A stretch of 64,000 nucleotides of DNA. It comes from a virus. Positions within the stretch are counted from its first letter, which is position 1, and the number at the start of each line of letters is the position of its first letter. A program made the translations under genes and the position numbers. The notes beneath the pieces were generated by a model. That model was not told the origin of the DNA, did no database searches, and saw nothing but the letters and a program-made list of their open reading frames with translations. This document shows positions 1 to 44,316 of this stretch, piece by piece. The stretch lies in IMG/VR virus record IMGVR_UViG_3300008111_000001. The stretch is one strand, 5' to 3'.

Positions 1-3000
1 ACTAATAGCCTGGATAGCATTACGGATAATCCAGCAGAAGCTATTAAAAGATTCTTTTCTTTAACAAGACCAGATGTCATTCCTGATATAGATACTTTAA
101 AGGATGGTCAGGCAGAAGACTTCAAGTCGGACCGGGACAATTATTCAAATAGAATAGAGGCTACCACTAGAGTGTTTACATCTGGTGGGACTCTGTCGTC
201 GCTTGTTGACGACGGTGCATTGTTAATTAACTTATATAAAAGATTAGAATCTACAGGTTTACTGTATTTGGCTTCGTTTGCTTATGAAATAAGTGAGTTC
301 GGCAAGAGGAGGCTGCAAAATGTTTATATGACTCAAAAGTCATTAGACTATCATGTAGATCCAGCAGTAGATACTGAGTGGCTCACTCTTTTAAGTCAGG
401 TTGTTTATAATCTCCAGGCAGATCCTATATCTTTTTCTATTATAAATCATTACCTTCCCGGTTTAATGACATTTGTCTTTGATGCCCTAGCTGTAACTGG
501 AGATTATTCAAACGCAGGAAAAGGCGGTGGAAGCGAAGACACTCTTAATAGAGAAGAAGACGCTGTTGAAGAATTAGAAAAAGCTTTTGGTGTTGCTCCA
601 AATGGTGAACCAATATTCACTATGGCATTTAGGATTAATGGTGGAAATACTTCTGCAAGAATTCGCAAAGCGATAGAAGACTTCCCATATAGAGCAAATA
701 TACCTCCTAAGAAACCTGATATTTTTCATTTACGTTTAGGCGCAGCAAACTTTTATGTACCGCCTATTTCCGTAACAGTCAACTCTGCATTCAAAACTGG
801 ATCTCTTACAGGTGGGGCAATCAGACAAAGAAACACGCCAAAATATAATGCAGGATACAAAGAAACCTCAATTTCATTAAGATTATTTTTTCCAAACTAT
901 GAAGAAATATGGGGCATGCACATAAGCGATGCTTCATCAATAGATCTTAAAGAAGGTTTTAAAATAGATTTTAAGAATTCTGGTGATTCAGAAGAAAAGA
1001 TAGATAAGTTCTTATCTTCTTTGCGTGGACTAATAGCAGCTTTTAAATACTCCCCGATACTGCCAATAAAAAATGATTACATAAACTCTGTTCATGGAAT
1101 CTCGGCGGTTGCACTATCTTCAATGTCTATTTCTACAGTTCCTAATTATCCATTTTCTCTGATGGTTGATCTGGAGCTATTTGCCTATAATCACAAGCCA
1201 TTCTTGCCAATGATTAAAGATTTTAACCAAGCAATTCACTGGGGCAAATACAGACAGTATATGGGCAAGGCTGCCGGCGCAATGCACAAATATGCCAATG
1301 AATCATTTTTGCTGAAAACTTCTGATAATAGAAACTCTGAAGAAACGCAAGATAATACTGGCATCATCCGCGATGGTTCTTATATATATCAAACGAGCCC
1401 TTATGGCGCATCCCTGACAAGTGAATCTGCTTTAGTGGATTCGTCTTTGACAGATGATACCTTGGAATTACTAAACACATATGAGGATGATGTTTTATAT
1501 ACTAATATAATTTCTCAATGGCGAGATGGTAGTAATTTAAGTTTTTACACTCCCGCTGAAACACAAACTAAAATGTTTTTACCTGACACTTCTTCATTTA
1601 GAAGTGAACAGGAAAAAATTCTAAATCAAGAAAGCTATGGGTTGTGGAATGGCTTATTGGCAAAATTTGGGATTGAAATTTCTCCTAATACGCCAGCAAT
1701 TCGTGACTTGGGTCAAATGAAGTCTCTTTCTTTAGAGCCAACATTCCCCCCATCCACAAGGACACTTGTTCGAGAATTCGTAGATATAGTTACCGCTGGC
1801 GTCAGCCAAACGGACTATAGAGATGGAATCTATAAATATAAAATGCAATCGTTTATTTCAAGCAATTTGACTAAACTGACTGCAGAAGAAAAAGAATGGC
1901 TTTTAAATTATTTAACACCAGATGAAATGCCATTTGATGCAGATTATTTTACTCAATATTCAACAGAGGGATCATATATATTAAATGATCCAGTTTTTAA
2001 TAATGAAAACGATAATGTAAGTTTAAACTTTGTTAAAAGAAGTATATGGAATTCAGTTCTTAATTCAGGAAATGTTATAGATACTTTGATTGTCGAAGAG
2101 ACCGAAAGAAGAAAAATTTTAGGTACTGAATCAACGCTTCCCGATGAAGAAAAGATTCGTCAACAAGTAACCGATGCTTTCTTAGTTTCGCTTTACAATC
2201 GCTTTTTTTCTGATGGTTACGTTCAAAATTTAATGAATGCTAAACGTTTGAAAGAAGGAGATTATCACTTCCAGGAGTGGGAAGTTCCGATGAATCGAGT
2301 AGATCTAGATCCTAAGAAAGCTATAGTTAACGGTGTTAGCGTAAGCCTTGGAAATAATCTTGCAAAACTACAAGTACAGATGCAAGAAGAGCCTACTTAT
2401 CAATATATAGGTGGAAAAGATTCGTATATCAATATATCCATGACTGTTTTTGGTGAAAGAGAACTCTATAAGATTAGAGCAATCTTTGACCATATCAATA
2501 GTTTGGCAAGACTAGAGCATTCTACTGGTGTTATTGGTTTCTTAGGAATCAAAAACATTATTAGCGCACTATGTGGAATTAAGTATGTTATCCCACTTAA
2601 CTTTAAAGTTGATACCATACCTAATTATCCACATGTCTATAATGTTCAGTTAAGTTTTGTGGACTTTGATATATTTCAGCAGCAACGAGAAAAGCTATCA
2701 TCAAAGCAGCAACGCGATTTTATTGATCATTTTGGATCAAAGAGAAATCCTTTCCTAAGAATTAAGCAATTGTGGGGAGCATTTAATGCATACCCCGATA
2801 TGCCGCTGGAAGTTCGCGATAAAGAAAATGAAGTAGTTGGCAATTTAGATCCAGATTTCTATTTCAGAAGTTTTGAAATGTTTGATAAAGATGTCATTAA
2901 TAATTTTATCTACCAACCAGATATAACAAAAGATTTTAAATTTGATTATAGTGATGACTGGGCAAAAGTTGGAGACGCTCGTGCTATAGAAATTAGAAAA

Positions 3001-6000
3001 AATCAAGTCAAAAATAGGATCACAGATTTTCTTAGAAGATACGCCTATAGGGATGTAGCAAATGAACCATTTGCTGCAGCACAAAGGGCAACTAATAATA
3101 AAACATTGATTAATGAAATAATAGACTACGTTAACACTAGTGGTATAAGTGTTCATAATTTTATTAGCCTTTTCAAAGAAGTAGTGCAAGCGGAAACTTC
3201 TGAGTTTGAAACTTCGCAAAAGCAAGCTCTATTAACCGATTATATTTTCATTGCTGCTCAATCAACTGAAGATAGTCCAGTATTTGATGAGGTTTCTGGA
3301 GCTGGATATTCTGTCGGGAACATTAATTATTCTGGTGCTGAAACGTTAAATCTAATTAAACAGGTTTTGACAGATTCTCATTTAGCTAATGAGACAGAGG
3401 TTAGTTTTAATCCAGATGAAGTAGATTTCCATAAAGTTATATATATGATTCCGGCAACAAATCCGCAAGAAACTGGATCTGAATCAGAGATACCAGCAAT
3501 GATGCAATCCGCATTAGGTACTCATTTTGGTTATATCAATAAAGATAATGGAAGATTCTACCTAACAGTTGATGGCTCGAATGTTCACATAGATGATAAT
3601 GGGGATAAAAGATTATCAGAAAATCAAATTGAAGATACACAAACTCCAGATAAAGGATGCACAAACACTCTTACTGGAGTTGAAGGTGTTCAATCATTGG
3701 ATAAATATCAAAAAGCATATGATGGCTCTTTTGGCGGTCACATACAAAAAATGATGAACGACGTCCAGTATAGAGACATATCCGGAAGAATGATTAGAGC
3801 ATTTCCTACGTACATGCTGTGGCTCATCGATGAAGGTGGTTTTTTTGCTGGCGTTAAATTGTTTGACAATTTCTACGGATTACAATCCATAGTTGACTTC
3901 TCTGTTGTTTCCTCAGAAGATCTTTTGGGTGATACCCTAATATTTAGGGTGTCCAATATGTATTCAAAGTTGACTACACGTCCTTCAACTGAAATTTTTA
4001 ACTCTAGAGACAATCAGCCAAATGATGCTCCCATAGATTTTACCCAAGGAATTGAGTCTATCTTAGATAGAACTCTAAATATAGCTAAAAATATTGTTTC
4101 TGGTATGAGAAATGACTATGTAGTAGACATAAATAATATTAGATTAAAGCCTGGTGTTCGCGTACATTTGAGAGTTGGTTATGGGGCTAATCCAAACTCT
4201 CTACAAACAGTTTTTAATGGCGTAATAACAAACGTTGAGCAAGGTGAAATTGTAACAGTAACTGCACAGTCTGATGCTATTGAGCTTGGAGCAATAGTTA
4301 ACTCTACAAATAAAAAGGGTGACACGGGTAAGATAGATGGTGGCGTAGATACTGGAATGTATTTGTCGGAGCCTAGAGATCTTATGGTCAGACTGCTTTC
4401 AATGGGGGCATCTAGATTTAGAGAAGCTTTTGCTAGAGCTACAAATGGAACGGTATTTTCTGAAAACAGATTTGGAATTCGTCACTTTGGCTCGACACTA
4501 TATGAGCCTTTAAGCGATTCAGAAAGAGCAAGGGCAGACGGAATTAGAAATGTTGTAGCAAGTGTTTATTCTAATCTTGGTCAAGGAGATGTTGGCGGAG
4601 CTGCCAACGCAGCGTCATTTAAATTGGCAACTAATGTATTCCAAAGAAATCCCGTCAACGCATTTTTTGGGGATGGAAAAATTATGACCAGTATGGGTCA
4701 ATTAATGTCCAACTTCTGCGCAGAAGTTGATTTGGAAATTTTTAAAAGAAATATTTATCCAGGAAACGGAACAGGTTTTGCTCAATTCCTTGGTGGCGAT
4801 ATAGATGACGGATGGTTAACCGCTTCTTCATTAGTGGAAGAAGACGACAAAAAATTAAAAGGACAGGCATACCTTGAAAGAGGCGTGGACAGATCGTGGA
4901 ATAGATTAATAGTAGAGGCTCAAAATGAGTCAGTTTCAGCAAGAACAGCTATTGCAACGATGACTTCCGGTAATCAATTAGTGTCCGCTGAAGGCAGAGC
5001 TAATGCAACAAAGAATGTATTGATGGGCGGATTGGCTGGTTCTATAGGTCTCATCCCTGGAGTGAGTTTTGCTGCTGGTGCAGGTCTTTCTGGTGGCGGA
5101 TTATTTGGCTTATTAAGAGGAAGAGGCGGCACTAACCTTTTCAGAACATTGGGAATTCTTGCACCGAACGCTGATGATGATTTGCCCGGTTTTGATGAAG
5201 TTTCATTTAGGGCTCAAACATACATGAGAACGGTATGGGATCTTTTCCAGGTATGCGCTAGGTTGCTACCTAATTATATTGTTGCTATTAGGCCCTTCGA
5301 GGACAGGTCCACTATATTCTACGGTAAACCTCATTGGCTTTATACTTCTGGTGTCGTACCGGTAACTACTGGATTCCCTAGTACCGAAAGAGGTTCGGAG
5401 TTAGAATTGCCAGGGTATCCAAGGTACCGTTCGCCGGACGAAGATATTGAAAATATTATGAACAATATTAATAGATCAAGTAATACATTAGCTGATTACG
5501 AAGCATTCAAGAGATCCAATGAATTGTCTGACACAATGGCAAGTTTAGCCAGCGATCAACTAAATGCCGAGGGGATATATAAGCCTACAGCATTTTTGAA
5601 AGAAAAGTTAATTAACTTTAATTCACCATTGGCTTCAAGTTTTTCTGAAACACAAGAAGATGGCTCAACCAGAATAGTGGCAAAACTGCCAGCTGTTGTT
5701 GGATTAACTAGAGTCGGATTCCATCTTCCAGTTGGAGACCCAGCTACAACTATAGCTCCAGCAACAGAGTCACACGCTCAGTTGGATAATCTTCCGCCAA
5801 GATTTAGGTACCCATTTTATACTATTAATGAAACTGTCATATTAGACACAACATCTTATACAGTTAGAGATGGCGGAGTTTTTAAAAACGCAGCAAGTCA
5901 TTTTAAGGATATTGGGAAATCTGGAAGAAAGTTTTTAGATAATGAGGGCGAAGTGCCCATGGACGCTGAAGAGTTTGAGGGTTTTGTAAATGAAGCAATG

Positions 6001-41182: not shown

Positions 41183-41432
41183 GAAGACTCTTTTTATTTT
41201 TATGATGTTTGCTCTTGGCTCATTAATTGGCAAATCTCAGTCTAAAAAGAAAATAGTTGAAAAATCAAAAGAGCCAAATGTTGCGCAATATTTAAATAGA
41301 CTAATTGAATTTTATGATTCCAATACACTAGATATTGTTGAGGATGAATTTCTAAATTTAGTAGACTTTGGAATGAGCCCAAAAAATGCTTTTGGTGCTG
41401 TAACACACAAGCAGGTAATTAATAATGATTGA
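41169..41432 (+). CDS. Hypothetical protein with N-terminal hydrophobic anchor
   Basis: MKNGEKTLFIFMMFALGSLIGK; start uncertain. Confidence 0.45.
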   Translation: MKNGEKTLFIFMMFALGSLIGKSQSKKKIVEKSKEPNVAQYLNRLIEFYDSNTLDIVEDEFLNLVDFGMSPKNAFGAVTHKQVINND

Positions 41433-42216
41433 TTTATGTGTAGTTAATTATAATACAAGACCACTTTTAAATAGATTTTTAGATTGTCTTCATAATGATC
41501 TTCATAATCATCCCAAGGTTTGGAATTTGTATATCGCAGATAACGATTCTACGGACGATAGTGTTGATTGGTTAAAGTATAATTATCAGAGATATAGGAT
41601 TAATAAATTCTATCATAATGATAACATTGGCTACTCCGCTGCTTGTAACCAACTCGCTGCTGAAGGAAGATCAGATATTATATGCCTACTCAACGCTGAT
41701 GTATGGATAGATAATGAAAATTTAGTTAGAGCAGCAAATATATTTGATGAAAATCCCGATATTCATATTTTAGGGCCAAAGCAAAGAGATGAGAATGGTT
41801 TAATCACCCATGCCGGTATAGTCGGCACTAATACAGCTCCTAGACATCGGGGATGGCGTCAAAGCGATTTTAATGATGAGCTATTTAAAGATAGAATTAA
41901 TTGCGTAACAGTTTCTGGCTCTGCCTACTTTATTCGTCGTGAAGTTTGGAATACACTGACTAATAATCCTAAATATAGAGAAATGTATCCAAACGCAACT
42001 GGAGCATTTTTGCCGACTCCTCATTATTATGAGGAAACCTGGTGCTCTTATTTTGCTAGGCATCTTGGCTATAATGTAGTTTATGATGGCAGTGTATCAA
42101 TAGGACATAGTTGGCATAAATCTTCTGCTGTTGGTGGCGAGGCAGATGGTAAGTTTTCTGTTAGTAGAGATATTTTTAGAAGAGCTTGCGATTTTATTGG
42201 GATAGAAAGAGACTAA
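41425..42216 (+). CDS. Glycosyltransferase family 2 (WbbL/RfbF-like)
   Basis: VVNYNT...ADNDSTDDS...NIGYSAACNQ...LLNADVW...HYYEET...IGH. Confidence 0.85.
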   Translation: MIDLCVVNYNTRPLLNRFLDCLHNDLHNHPKVWNLYIADNDSTDDSVDWLKYNYQRYRINKFYHNDNIGYSAACNQLAAEGRSDIICLLNADVWIDNENLVRAANIFDENPDIHILGPKQRDENGLITHAGIVGTNTAPRHRGWRQSDFNDELFKDRINCVTVSGSAYFIRREVWNTLTNNPKYREMYPNATGAFLPTPHYYEETWCSYFARHLGYNVVYDGSVSIGHSWHKSSAVGGEADGKFSVSRDIFRRACDFIGIERD

Positions 42217-42223
42217 TTCACCA

Positions 42224-43102
42224 ATGCTAACATACGGCTCACTTTTTTCGGGCGCAGGAGGAATAGATATTGGTCTAGATAATGCTGGTATGAGCTGTAA
42301 GTTTCAAGTAGAGATAGATGAAAATTGTCAACAAATATTACAGTACAATTGGCCTAATGTCTTAAAATTCAAAGACATAAAAAATGTTAATGGATATGAT
42401 TTACCGGAAGTAGACTTAATTGCGTTTGGATCTCCATGTCAAGACTTATCTACTGCTGGGAATAAAACAGGACTTTATGGAAATAAATCTATTTTATTTT
42501 ATGAAGCTACAAGAATAATAAAAGAAATGAGAGCCAAAACGAATGGACAATACCCAAAATGGTCAATCTGGGAAAATGTTGTTGGAGCCTTATCTTCCAA
42601 CGGAGGTTCCGACTTTGGGCAAGTCCTCCGAGAAATGGATGAAGCAGGGGCGCATTTCAGTGAATGGGCAGTGTTGGATGCACAATACTTTGGAATACCC
42701 CAGCAACGAAGAAGAGTTTACGTCATCTCTGTCTATGATTCTGTTATCGCCAAAAGATGTCCAGAAAAAATATTTTCTCTCAGCCAAGGCAGCGATGGGA
42801 ATTCTTCGAAGAGTATCAAGAGAGAACAAAAAGATTCCACAGAAATTGCTAGTTGCCTTAGAAGCGGTGGCCAAGGAGGAGTCCCCTCAAGTAGGGGAGA
42901 ACATTTAGTTGTTGAGTCAGAAAAAAGGGTTAGAAGACTTACTCCAATTGAATGGGAAAGACTCATGGGCTGGCCGGATAATCACACCTTATTCCGTATT
43001 GATGGACAGACTAACTCAGACACAATAAGATATAAAATGTGTGGTAACGGAGCCGCATCACCTGTGGTAAAATGGATAGCAGATCAAATAAAGGAGATAT
43101 AA
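42224..43102 (+). CDS. DNA (cytosine-5) methyltransferase (alpha-like chain)
   Basis: Motif I FSGAGG, IV GSPCQDLS, VI ENVVG, VIII PQQRRRVY, IX RRLTPIEWERLMGWP, X YKMCGNG; very short variable region. Confidence 0.92.
   Translation: MLTYGSLFSGAGGIDIGLDNAGMSCKFQVEIDENCQQILQYNWPNVLKFKDIKNVNGYDLPEVDLIAFGSPCQDLSTAGNKTGLYGNKSILFYEATRIIKEMRAKTNGQYPKWSIWENVVGALSSNGGSDFGQVLREMDEAGAHFSEWAVLDAQYFGIPQQRRRVYVISVYDSVIAKRCPEKIFSLSQGSDGNSSKSIKREQKDSTEIASCLRSGGQGGVPSSRGEHLVVESEKRVRRLTPIEWERLMGWPDNHTLFRIDGQTNSDTIRYKMCGNGAASPVVKWIADQIKEI
42543..42908 (+). CDS. Overprinted alternative-frame protein inside the C5-MTase gene, M.EcoHK31I beta-subunit-like
   Basis: 121-codon ORF in the +1 frame. SGKM...SSEKWMKQG...GQCWMHNTLEYPSNEEE-SSLSMIL...KKYFLSAKAAMGILRR...KKIPQKLLVAL is protein-like and matches the L-x-x-I-L...KY-x-LS element that normally follows motif VIII. 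Confidence 0.7.
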   Translation: MDNTQNGQSGKMLLEPYLPTEVPTLGKSSEKWMKQGRISVNGQCWMHNTLEYPSNEEEFTSSLSMILLSPKDVQKKYFLSAKAAMGILRRVSRENKKIPQKLLVALEAVAKEESPQVGENI

Positions 43103-43501
43103 ATGTCGGATAAATTAAATCCATGGATATACAATGCAGAGGTAAAAAAAGTTGTTGATGGTGACACTTTTGATATTATTATTGACCTTGGTTTTGACGT
43201 GCTCAAAAAGGGTAGAGTTCGCTTATATGGCGTTAATACTCCGGAAAGCAGAACGTCTAACGTTGAAGAAAAGAAGATGGGATTAGCTGCAAAAGAGTTC
43301 ACGGACCAATGGTTAACCGCCGCCAATCACAAAGTTAAAATTGAAACTATTATTGATAAGAACGAAAAGTACGGAAGAGTTCTGGCAAGAGTGTGGAATG
43401 AGGCTGAAGAGTGTCTAAATGATGCTATAATAGCGTCTGGTCTTGCTAGAGCATACTTTGGCGTAGGCGATAAAACATTCACTGAATTCAAAAAGGACTA
43501 A
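43103..43501 (+). CDS. Thermonuclease (SNase-like)
   Basis: KKVVDGDTFD...VRLYGVNTPE...EKYGRVLA...NDAIIASGLA. Confidence 0.88.
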   Translation: MSDKLNPWIYNAEVKKVVDGDTFDIIIDLGFDVLKKGRVRLYGVNTPESRTSNVEEKKMGLAAKEFTDQWLTAANHKVKIETIIDKNEKYGRVLARVWNEAEECLNDAIIASGLARAYFGVGDKTFTEFKKD

Positions 43502-43502
43502 A

Positions 43503-43922
43503 GTGCAAACATTTTTACCGTACGCAGATTTTGAAAAATCTGTAGAAGTATTAGACTATCGCAGATTGGGGAAGCAACGTGTTGAAACATTTCAAGTTCT
43601 TAATATTTTACTTGAAAGAACGCCTACGAAAGGTTGGCGAAACCATCCAGTCACGCTAATGTGGACCGGGTATGAATCAGCTCTGAAGTTATATCAAAAT
43701 ATAACTATCCGTGAATGGGTTCGTAGAGGATACAATAACAATATGCAATACGAAGAAATAGAACCGGGAACTGTTGTAATGCCAGCCTGGTTTGGCAATG
43801 AAGAATTCCATAGATCACATAGATCAAATCTTCTTCGTAAAGACTTTGGATATTATTCACAGTATTTTGATGAACCAAATGACCTAGAATATTATTGGCC
43901 AGGAGTAAGCTATGCCTCTTAA
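43503..43922 (+). CDS. Pyrimidine-dimer DNA glycosylase / endonuclease V-like (MSMEG_6728-like)
   Basis: MQTFLPY...LDYRRLGKQRVET...GWRNHPVTLMW...FHRSHRSNLLRKD...YYWP. Confidence 0.85.
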   Translation: MQTFLPYADFEKSVEVLDYRRLGKQRVETFQVLNILLERTPTKGWRNHPVTLMWTGYESALKLYQNITIREWVRRGYNNNMQYEEIEPGTVVMPAWFGNEEFHRSHRSNLLRKDFGYYSQYFDEPNDLEYYWPGVSYAS

Positions 43923-44316
43923 AGTATTTTTATCTGGAGCCATTGAAGGTGTCGAAGAATATGGTCGCAGTTGGAGAAAAGCTGCTACTGAAAAGCTGCA
44001 CCTTTTTGGTTATGATGTTTTAGATCCAACACTAATCTTCGATAAAGAGTATGAAACTCCAGAAGAAATTGTTGAAAAGAATTTGTTTTTACAGCGCAGA
44101 GCCGATATAATTCTTGTAGAATATATGATCAAAGATCGCCCATATATAGGAACTGATTTTGAATTAGCTTGGGCTAAATTCAACAATCAACCCGCAGTAG
44201 TTTTCTGCTGTGATTCAAATAAAAATAGAGTTTATTTGAAATATATGGCAACAAAACTTGCATCATCGATGCAAGATGCGATAGAATATATCGCAACCAA
44301 TTATCCATCAAATTAA
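43912..44316 (+). CDS. Nucleoside 2-deoxyribosyltransferase / dNMP N-glycosidase-like protein
   Basis: KVFLSGAI...ADIILV...IGTDFELAWA matches the NDT GT-x-x-E motif. Confidence 0.75.
   Translation: MPLKVFLSGAIEGVEEYGRSWRKAATEKLHLFGYDVLDPTLIFDKEYETPEEIVEKNLFLQRRADIILVEYMIKDRPYIGTDFELAWAKFNNQPAVVFCCDSNKNRVYLKYMATKLASSMQDAIEYIATNYPSN

Follow-up and report, generated by a model that had tools for sequence, protein, structure and literature searches.

A second reading frame conserved within a phage C5 cytosine methyltransferase gene and its putative role as a small subunit

The C5 cytosine DNA methyltransferase (MTase) gene of an uncultured virus contains a second, shorter open reading frame that lies entirely within it, and purifying selection acts in both frames. 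We refer to the product of the main frame as alpha and to that of the nested +1 frame as beta. Judged from sequence comparison, beta is a real gene under selection of its own and would be translated as such; its length, its openness, its start and the purifying selection in the second frame are what is expected computationally of a functional overlapping gene. By analogy with a known two-chain enzyme, we further consider it fairly probable that beta is translated separately as a small subunit that would dock on alpha, complete its DNA-recognition domain and so take part in methylation.

The methyltransferase gene and its nested frame

The stretch of DNA analyzed here (the window, 64,000 nucleotides) belongs to a 194-kb uncultured virus record that is ∼92% complete and holds a single C5-MTase. 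The alpha gene (42224-43102, plus strand) encodes 292 amino acids and matches PF00145 in two stretches (E = 6.8e-57). All conserved motifs from I through X lie on this one reading frame of the plus strand: motif I (FSGAGG, seen in the translation), motif IV (PCQ, nt 42434-42442), motif VI (ENV, nt 42572-42580, residues 117-119), motif VIII (QQRRR, nt 42701-42715, residues 160-164), motif IX (RRLTPIEWERLMGWPD, nt 42932-42979, residues 237-252), and motif X (GNG, nt 43043-43051). Motif IX is invariant or nearly so across the family and stands in the alpha frame, where the initial annotation had placed it.

The AlphaFold model of alpha (pTM 0.78) has chains of M.HhaI as its top PDB matches (E ∼1e-17), with M.HaeIII also among the best, so that both the motifs and the MTase fold place alpha in the C5-MTase family. 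The model is confident over residues 1-187, with a dip to ∼60 at residues 71-90, and again over residues 235-292. Residues 188-234 (42785-42925, plus strand), which consist of a low-complexity linker and a short "CLRSGGQGGVPSSRGEHLVV" loop, stay below a pLDDT of 50, in agreement with the earlier impression of a short, unstructured-looking variable region in the main frame. Between the confidently folded core and motif IX there are these ∼47 poorly structured residues and nothing else. The model suggests that alpha possesses a normal catalytic domain and motifs IX-X, and that the folded small domain is almost absent.

The MTase gene is preceded by a GT2 glycosyltransferase gene (41425-42216) and followed by genes for a staphylococcal-nuclease-like (SNase-like) protein (43103-43501), a DenV-like pyrimidine-dimer glycosylase (43503-43922), and a nucleoside 2-deoxyribosyltransferase-like protein (43912-44316). 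No restriction endonuclease gene was found among these neighbors within 41425-44316. The GT2, MTase, SNase-like, and pyrimidine-dimer glycosylase genes recur as a block in the closest IMG/VR relatives (window block 41425-44316). A related-locus search likewise returned IMG/VR contigs as the nearest relatives of the MTase gene, and a search at the DNA level found no cultured phage close to it.

The beta frame (42543-42908, plus strand) runs from an ATG at 42543-42545 to a TAG at 42906-42908, encodes 121 amino acids and, as the initial annotation had described, lies wholly inside the MTase gene, where it covers alpha motifs VI and VIII and the beginning of the variable region. We divide it into an N-terminal half (residues 2-61, 42546-42725, plus strand), which overlaps alpha motifs VI-VIII and over which alpha is the dominant selected frame, and a C-terminal element (residues 62-112, 42726-42878, plus strand), a predicted helical hairpin over which beta is the selected frame. 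From stop to stop, the open stretch measures 125 codons. When alpha was shuffled synonymously (n = 20,000), the longest +1 stretch averaged 50 codons, and a stretch of at least 125 codons arose with P = 0.0012; in the remaining ORFs of the window (≥150 amino acids), no nested alternative-frame stretch is longer than 63 codons. A chance ORF is excluded as an explanation for beta.

Conservation and selection in the two frames

We compared the window with 80 viral loci that carry alpha homologs at 40-74% identity. Searched by tblastn with beta, all 80 loci were matched in the +1 frame (33-71% identity). Of the 81 related copies, 80 keep the beta frame open, over 113-178 codons and at GC contents of 44-60%. 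In the sole exception (L013), codon 17 of the beta frame is a stop, after which an in-frame ATG occurs; stops in close homologs, which had been named beforehand as grounds for rejecting the nested gene, are absent from all other copies. Across the region, alpha is open in 58 and beta in 60 of 60 homologs, and no other frame is consistently open: the third sense frame is open in none of the 60, and the three antisense frames are open in 0, 5, and 18. Where the homologs differ in beta, the amino acid exchanges are conservative (Lys/Arg, Tyr/Phe, Ile/Leu).

Two antisense ORFs of the window, at 42590-42874 (minus strand, 94 amino acids) and 42733-42966 (minus strand, 77 amino acids), overlap the dual-coded stretch. 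They were rejected as genes and are regarded as by-products, since the antisense frames are open in only 0-18 of the 60 homologs.

Several homologs depart from the common pattern in alpha. In three IMG/VR loci (L064, L065, and L066), a TAA replaces the CAA codon of the motif VIII glutamine (FGVP*RRRR; L065:3475-3477), a change without effect on the beta protein, whose frame remains open over 140 codons; motifs IX-X of these loci lie in yet another frame. They may represent a decaying alpha with an intact beta. In about 20 of 61 homologs (including L028, L030, L065, and L077), the alpha ORF stops within a long modular variable region and motifs IX-X run on in a different frame, the break often lying near "...VVE.P" or "K(S/R)RRAQ..DDYETW". 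Such breaks could mark sites of recurrent frameshifting, reflect errors of assembly, or divide enzymes made of several pieces. Finally, three loci (L012, L027, and L055) keep the beta frame open but have diverged past "KY.L[ST]" and do not carry the GILRR...ALE helices; in L012 and L055, the variable region of alpha is of a different, compact, GYFTFYTSQGKYD-like kind. This hints that the beta hairpin is tied to a particular type of recognition region.

The likely translation start of beta (42529-42545, plus strand) comprises a purine-rich GAGAG at 42529-42533, a spacer of 9 nucleotides, and the ATG, which is built from the alpha codons for Asn-107 (AAT) and Gly-108 (GGA). A +1 ATG formed from an alpha NAT codon followed by G, 9 and/or 12 codons before ENV, is present in all 61 unique sequences. 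The ATG-forming NAT is kept even in genes whose overall NAT:NAC ratio is as low as 4:57 to 9:56, and the three homologs with AAC at −9 all carry GAT-G at −12. A GGAG-type Shine-Dalgarno sequence lies 6-10 nucleotides upstream of the ATG in 35 of the 61 homologs; the window's own is weak, with GAGAG alone. The conserved ATG together with the Shine-Dalgarno sequences of the homologs argues for independent initiation rather than for frameshifting.

Selection on the two frames was assessed by four independent measures: codon phase, substitution classes, synonymous diversity of alpha, and a recoding null for the N-terminal half of beta. Over beta residues 1-60, the per-position entropy is highest at the third base of alpha codons. 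From about residue 61-66 until about residue 115, the most variable position moves to the third base of beta codons; the third base of alpha is then among the most conserved (0.3-0.9 bits versus 1.1-1.6). Seen from alpha, first codon positions are the most variable and third positions the most conserved after motif VIII. This switch of phase is characteristic of coding selection acting on the other frame.

The substitution classes follow the same division. In the N-terminal half, 13,414 differences are silent in alpha and change beta versus 2,375 of the reverse kind (5.6:1 for alpha). Over beta residues 66-112, 11,504 differences are silent in beta and change alpha versus 1,443 of the reverse kind (8:1 for beta), and the same bases of the C-terminal element yield a mean pairwise identity of 0.60 when read as beta and of 0.21-0.49 when read as alpha. 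The synonymous diversity of alpha is 0.55-0.7 upstream of beta, with a single dip to 0.42. Inside beta, it is 0.34-0.48 from about residue 100, with values of 0.12 at residues 134-145 and 0.09 at residues 188-205, and it returns to 0.54-0.59 past the beta stop. For the N-terminal half, where most of the sequence follows from alpha, we used a recoding null that keeps both alpha proteins of a pair and their codon usage. The +1 identity lies above this null by a mean z of 3.3, versus 0.1 for an upstream control region, and no partner contains a stop in this half, though 28-97% of the recodings create one. The N-terminal half of beta is held open, and its conservation exceeds what alpha accounts for by itself.

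The initial annotation had held that the second frame reads as a real protein; the shuffling probability of 0.0012, the open frame in 80 of 81 copies, and the switch of selection to beta bear this out. Dual-frame codon conservation across homologous phage MTases, which it had proposed as a check, is likewise found: both frames are constrained, and the phase switches after motif VIII.

Predicted structure of beta and known two-chain enzymes

An AlphaFold2 model of beta was built from a 53-sequence alignment. Residues 1-60 are predicted at a pLDDT of ∼50 and residues 62-112 at 81-92, with helices at 81-94 and 100-111. The C-terminal element follows the pattern SL..IL...V..KY.LS.KA..GILRR....K.(I/L)P..L..ALE.VA. 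The DNA that encodes the hairpin (42726-42878) corresponds to alpha residues ∼168-218, which are of low complexity and weakly conserved; residues 188-218 fall within the low-confidence segment of alpha.

Beta has no family match in Pfam, including PF00145, and no match in a sequence search of the PDB. Fold searches (Foldseek, VIA) returned generic helical matches and nothing specific, a single-sequence word search for homologs of the C-terminal element gave none, and the ESM Atlas returned unnamed viral clusters alone. The initial annotation had equated this element with the segment that single-chain C5-MTases carry after motif VIII. The likeness in pattern stands, as Escherichia coli Dcm contains a similar-looking "TLAQLLDPMVEAKYILTP", but neither hhalign of the element against Dcm nor Pfam gives a significant match. 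In Streptococcus phage Javan113 (L091, 1167-2447), a C5-MTase is annotated as two coding sequences split by an in-frame stop, and its +1 frame ends in "STLSDILEVEVDDKYYLSAEKAVAILSNL", which resembles the first part of the beta element and is followed by a stop.

The precedent cited in the initial annotation, M.EcoHK31I, is genuine. This two-polypeptide C5-MTase of E. coli HK31 recognizes YGGCCR (Lee, Kam & Shaw 1995, to the extent described in PMC2836561 and PMC3404938). Its beta chain is encoded wholly within the alpha gene in another frame, and both chains are needed; motif IX is described as lying on beta and missing from alpha, which has motifs I-VIII, the variable region, and motif X (PMC2836561, PMC3404938). 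The enzyme becomes inactive when the beta start and two internal Met codons are removed by silent changes. Beta binds alpha less and less well as its N terminus is progressively deleted, whereas function stays with the C-terminal part, and a beta chain minus 67 N-terminal residues is still functional when tethered (PMC2836561, PMC3404938).

The phage gene shares the layout of M.EcoHK31I, as the small-chain gene lies wholly within 42224-43102, on the same strand and in another frame (offset +1). The division of the M.EcoHK31I beta chain into an N-terminal part for association and a C-terminal part for function also parallels the low-confidence N-terminal half and the folded C-terminal hairpin of phage beta, and this shared anatomy favors beta as a small subunit. 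However, motif IX of M.EcoHK31I, as published, resides on the small chain, whereas in the phage it resides in alpha and beta, which does not match PF00145, offers a different, helical element. Moreover, M.EcoHK31I belongs to a restriction-modification pair, whereas the phage gene is a lone MTase. Either the split differs from that of M.EcoHK31I, or the motif IX assignment of 1995 meant the element of beta. The initial annotation had tentatively likened one stretch of beta, "WMHNTLEYPSNEEE", to the M.EcoHK31I beta chain; compared here by its published description, M.EcoHK31I is most likely the closest known case.

A second natural two-chain C5-MTase, M.AquI (CYCGRG), is divided within the variable region (Karreman & de Waard 1990, as far as it is summarized in PMC3404938). 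The phage enzyme would resemble it in having two chains and a division in this region. However, in that summary the two M.AquI chains follow one another, the first with motifs I-VIII and the second with IX-X, whereas phage alpha is full length, spans motifs I to X, and has beta nested within it.

The overlap also resembles overprinted genes of viruses (PMC8227390) in being a same-strand +1 overlap that suppresses synonymous change in the host frame, and in placing an ordered segment over a low-complexity, poorly predicted segment of the other frame. In contrast to those genes, it is neither lineage-restricted nor young. In the literature, we found no further description of nested frames in C5-MTases: the two-chain nested layout is demonstrated by experiment in M.EcoHK31I only and is almost never annotated. 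What is new here is a widespread, unannotated variant with motif IX in alpha; the kind itself is already known and has barely been studied.

Distribution of the layout and the role of beta

An exhaustive HMMER search with beta returned 1,129 cluster representatives at E ≤ 1e-3. A profile of its C-terminal element matched 941 proteins, most of them 100-170 amino acids long and either unnamed or labeled "hypothetical protein". Direct reading revealed the nested layout in four loci of bacterial metagenome-assembled genomes (L081-L084: an Actinomycetales member, two Anaerolineaceae, and a Rhodoferax), as well as in a Ruminococcus phage (L090). It was also read in a P1-like IncY plasmid (L093, NZ_LR883966.1), where a nested +1 ORF of 163 codons lies in a gene for a 1096-amino acid Dam and C5-MTase fusion (CDS 964-4251). 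The fusion MTase of this plasmid also contains an intein-like insertion that ends "...VVHN|CQAFS" within catalytic motif IV. Searches by tblastn also located the nested frame in mycobacteriophages and in hundreds of P1-like plasmids, where it falls within genes annotated as MTases; for a few phages (Ruminococcus phages and mycobacteriophage Phoebus), the record labels the host gene itself merely "hypothetical protein". Among the plasmid hits, none was recognizable as M.EcoHK31I-like. None of the records listed by these searches has a separate annotated feature for the nested frame, as had been anticipated of standard annotation. Judged from these loci, the nested layout occurs widely in a large C5-MTase clade and is no peculiarity of this phage, and the overlap, common to phages and several bacterial phyla, is neither restricted to one lineage nor young.

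Three kinds of database hits were rejected. Proteins with beta fused to motifs IX-X (P0004, P0009, P0023, P0093, P0143, and others), considered as a second, "Rosetta stone" architecture, are all single-member clusters, and the nearest genomic relative of P0143 (L081) has the ordinary nested layout; these fusions are probably indel artifacts and do not count as evidence of a natural joining of beta to these motifs. The same applies to proteins in which the N-terminal part of alpha is joined to beta (P0159, P0160, P0166, P0174, P0197, and P0217), which are singletons with varied junctions. Finally, "SPAKTSPSP" and "SLKMFPD", considered as independent domains in the hits, apparently represent +1 readings of motif IV (PCQDLS) and motif VI (ENVPG), as decoded by hand.

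How might the two products work together? We propose that the MTase gene encodes two proteins, alpha of 292 amino acids from the main frame and beta of 121 amino acids from the +1 frame, and that beta would initiate independently at the ATG 9 codons before ENV. Its first 60 residues, dictated mostly by alpha motifs VI-VIII, probably make up a flexible arm for docking on alpha. The last 50 residues of beta, the part under the strongest selection, are predicted to form a basic helical hairpin. Bound to alpha, beta would complete or stabilize the small DNA-recognizing domain, as the M.EcoHK31I beta chain does. Several findings count against such a subunit: alpha lacks no catalytic motif, IX included, and could work without a partner; beta has no Pfam, PDB-sequence, or specific fold match; and the window's own Shine-Dalgarno sequence is weak. 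Furthermore, because a gene nested in another is passed on along with it regardless of what it does, co-occurrence alone is no proof of a shared function.

All of the coding evidence would apply equally if beta were a separately translated protein with an unrelated job, for example a gene regulator, a nucleic acid-binding protein, or an anti-defense factor, overprinted on a tolerant linker of alpha. An alpha with all ten motifs, a basic hairpin (RR...K) that has no recognizable MTase fold, and the three loci in which alpha stops in motif VIII while beta is intact (L064-L066) agree with such a role. We nevertheless regard it as unlikely, because M.EcoHK31I, the sole tested case of the layout, is a two-chain enzyme (PMC2836561), because the region between motifs VIII and IX of alpha is far too short and too poorly predicted for a normal small domain, and because the beta element lies on the DNA exactly where the small domain would begin.

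Much less probable is entry into the beta frame by a +1 ribosomal frameshift after motif VIII, which would yield an alpha(1 to ∼165)-hairpin protein and not a free 121-amino acid chain. Beta-specific selection does start directly after motif VIII, and the arginine run after this motif uses rare AGA codons. Against this stand the ATG conserved 60 codons upstream, often with a Shine-Dalgarno sequence, and the 60 codons that follow it, which nearly all homologs keep free of stops and which are conserved beyond the demands of alpha. The junction also has no alpha-frame stop of the kind present at known bacterial +1 shift sites, and the point at which the two frames are joined differs widely among the database fusions, all of them singletons. 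That the beta frame is untranslated, its openness and conservation being a by-product of alpha residues, codon bias, or an RNA or DNA signal, is scarcely credible: most of the conservation in the N-terminal half does follow from alpha, but the phase switch after motif VIII, the conservative replacements in beta, the start codon kept against codon bias, and the upstream control region that has no such effect all speak against it.

Returning to beta as a small subunit of alpha, we put forward a broader proposal more tentatively. A large, ancient clade of C5-MTases, spanning freshwater phages, mycobacteriophages, phages of gut Firmicutes, P1 Dmt, and bacterial enzymes, may consist of obligate two-chain enzymes. 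Their second chain, nested in the +1 frame and unannotated, would supply a helical element for DNA recognition and not motif IX, and thousands of "single-gene" MTases would be misdescribed. The subunit role of beta can be tested directly where experiments are tractable, for example in phage P1 dmt or in mycobacteriophages. Should beta prove to be a working subunit, many phage and plasmid MTases now treated as single genes in cloning, annotation, or use would be two-gene units, and recoding, truncating, or codon-optimizing alpha would silently destroy beta. The pair would then clearly exemplify how DNA for a poorly structured linker can also encode an ordered protein segment, and would rank among the oldest and most widespread overlaps known between same-strand genes of prokaryotes and their viruses.
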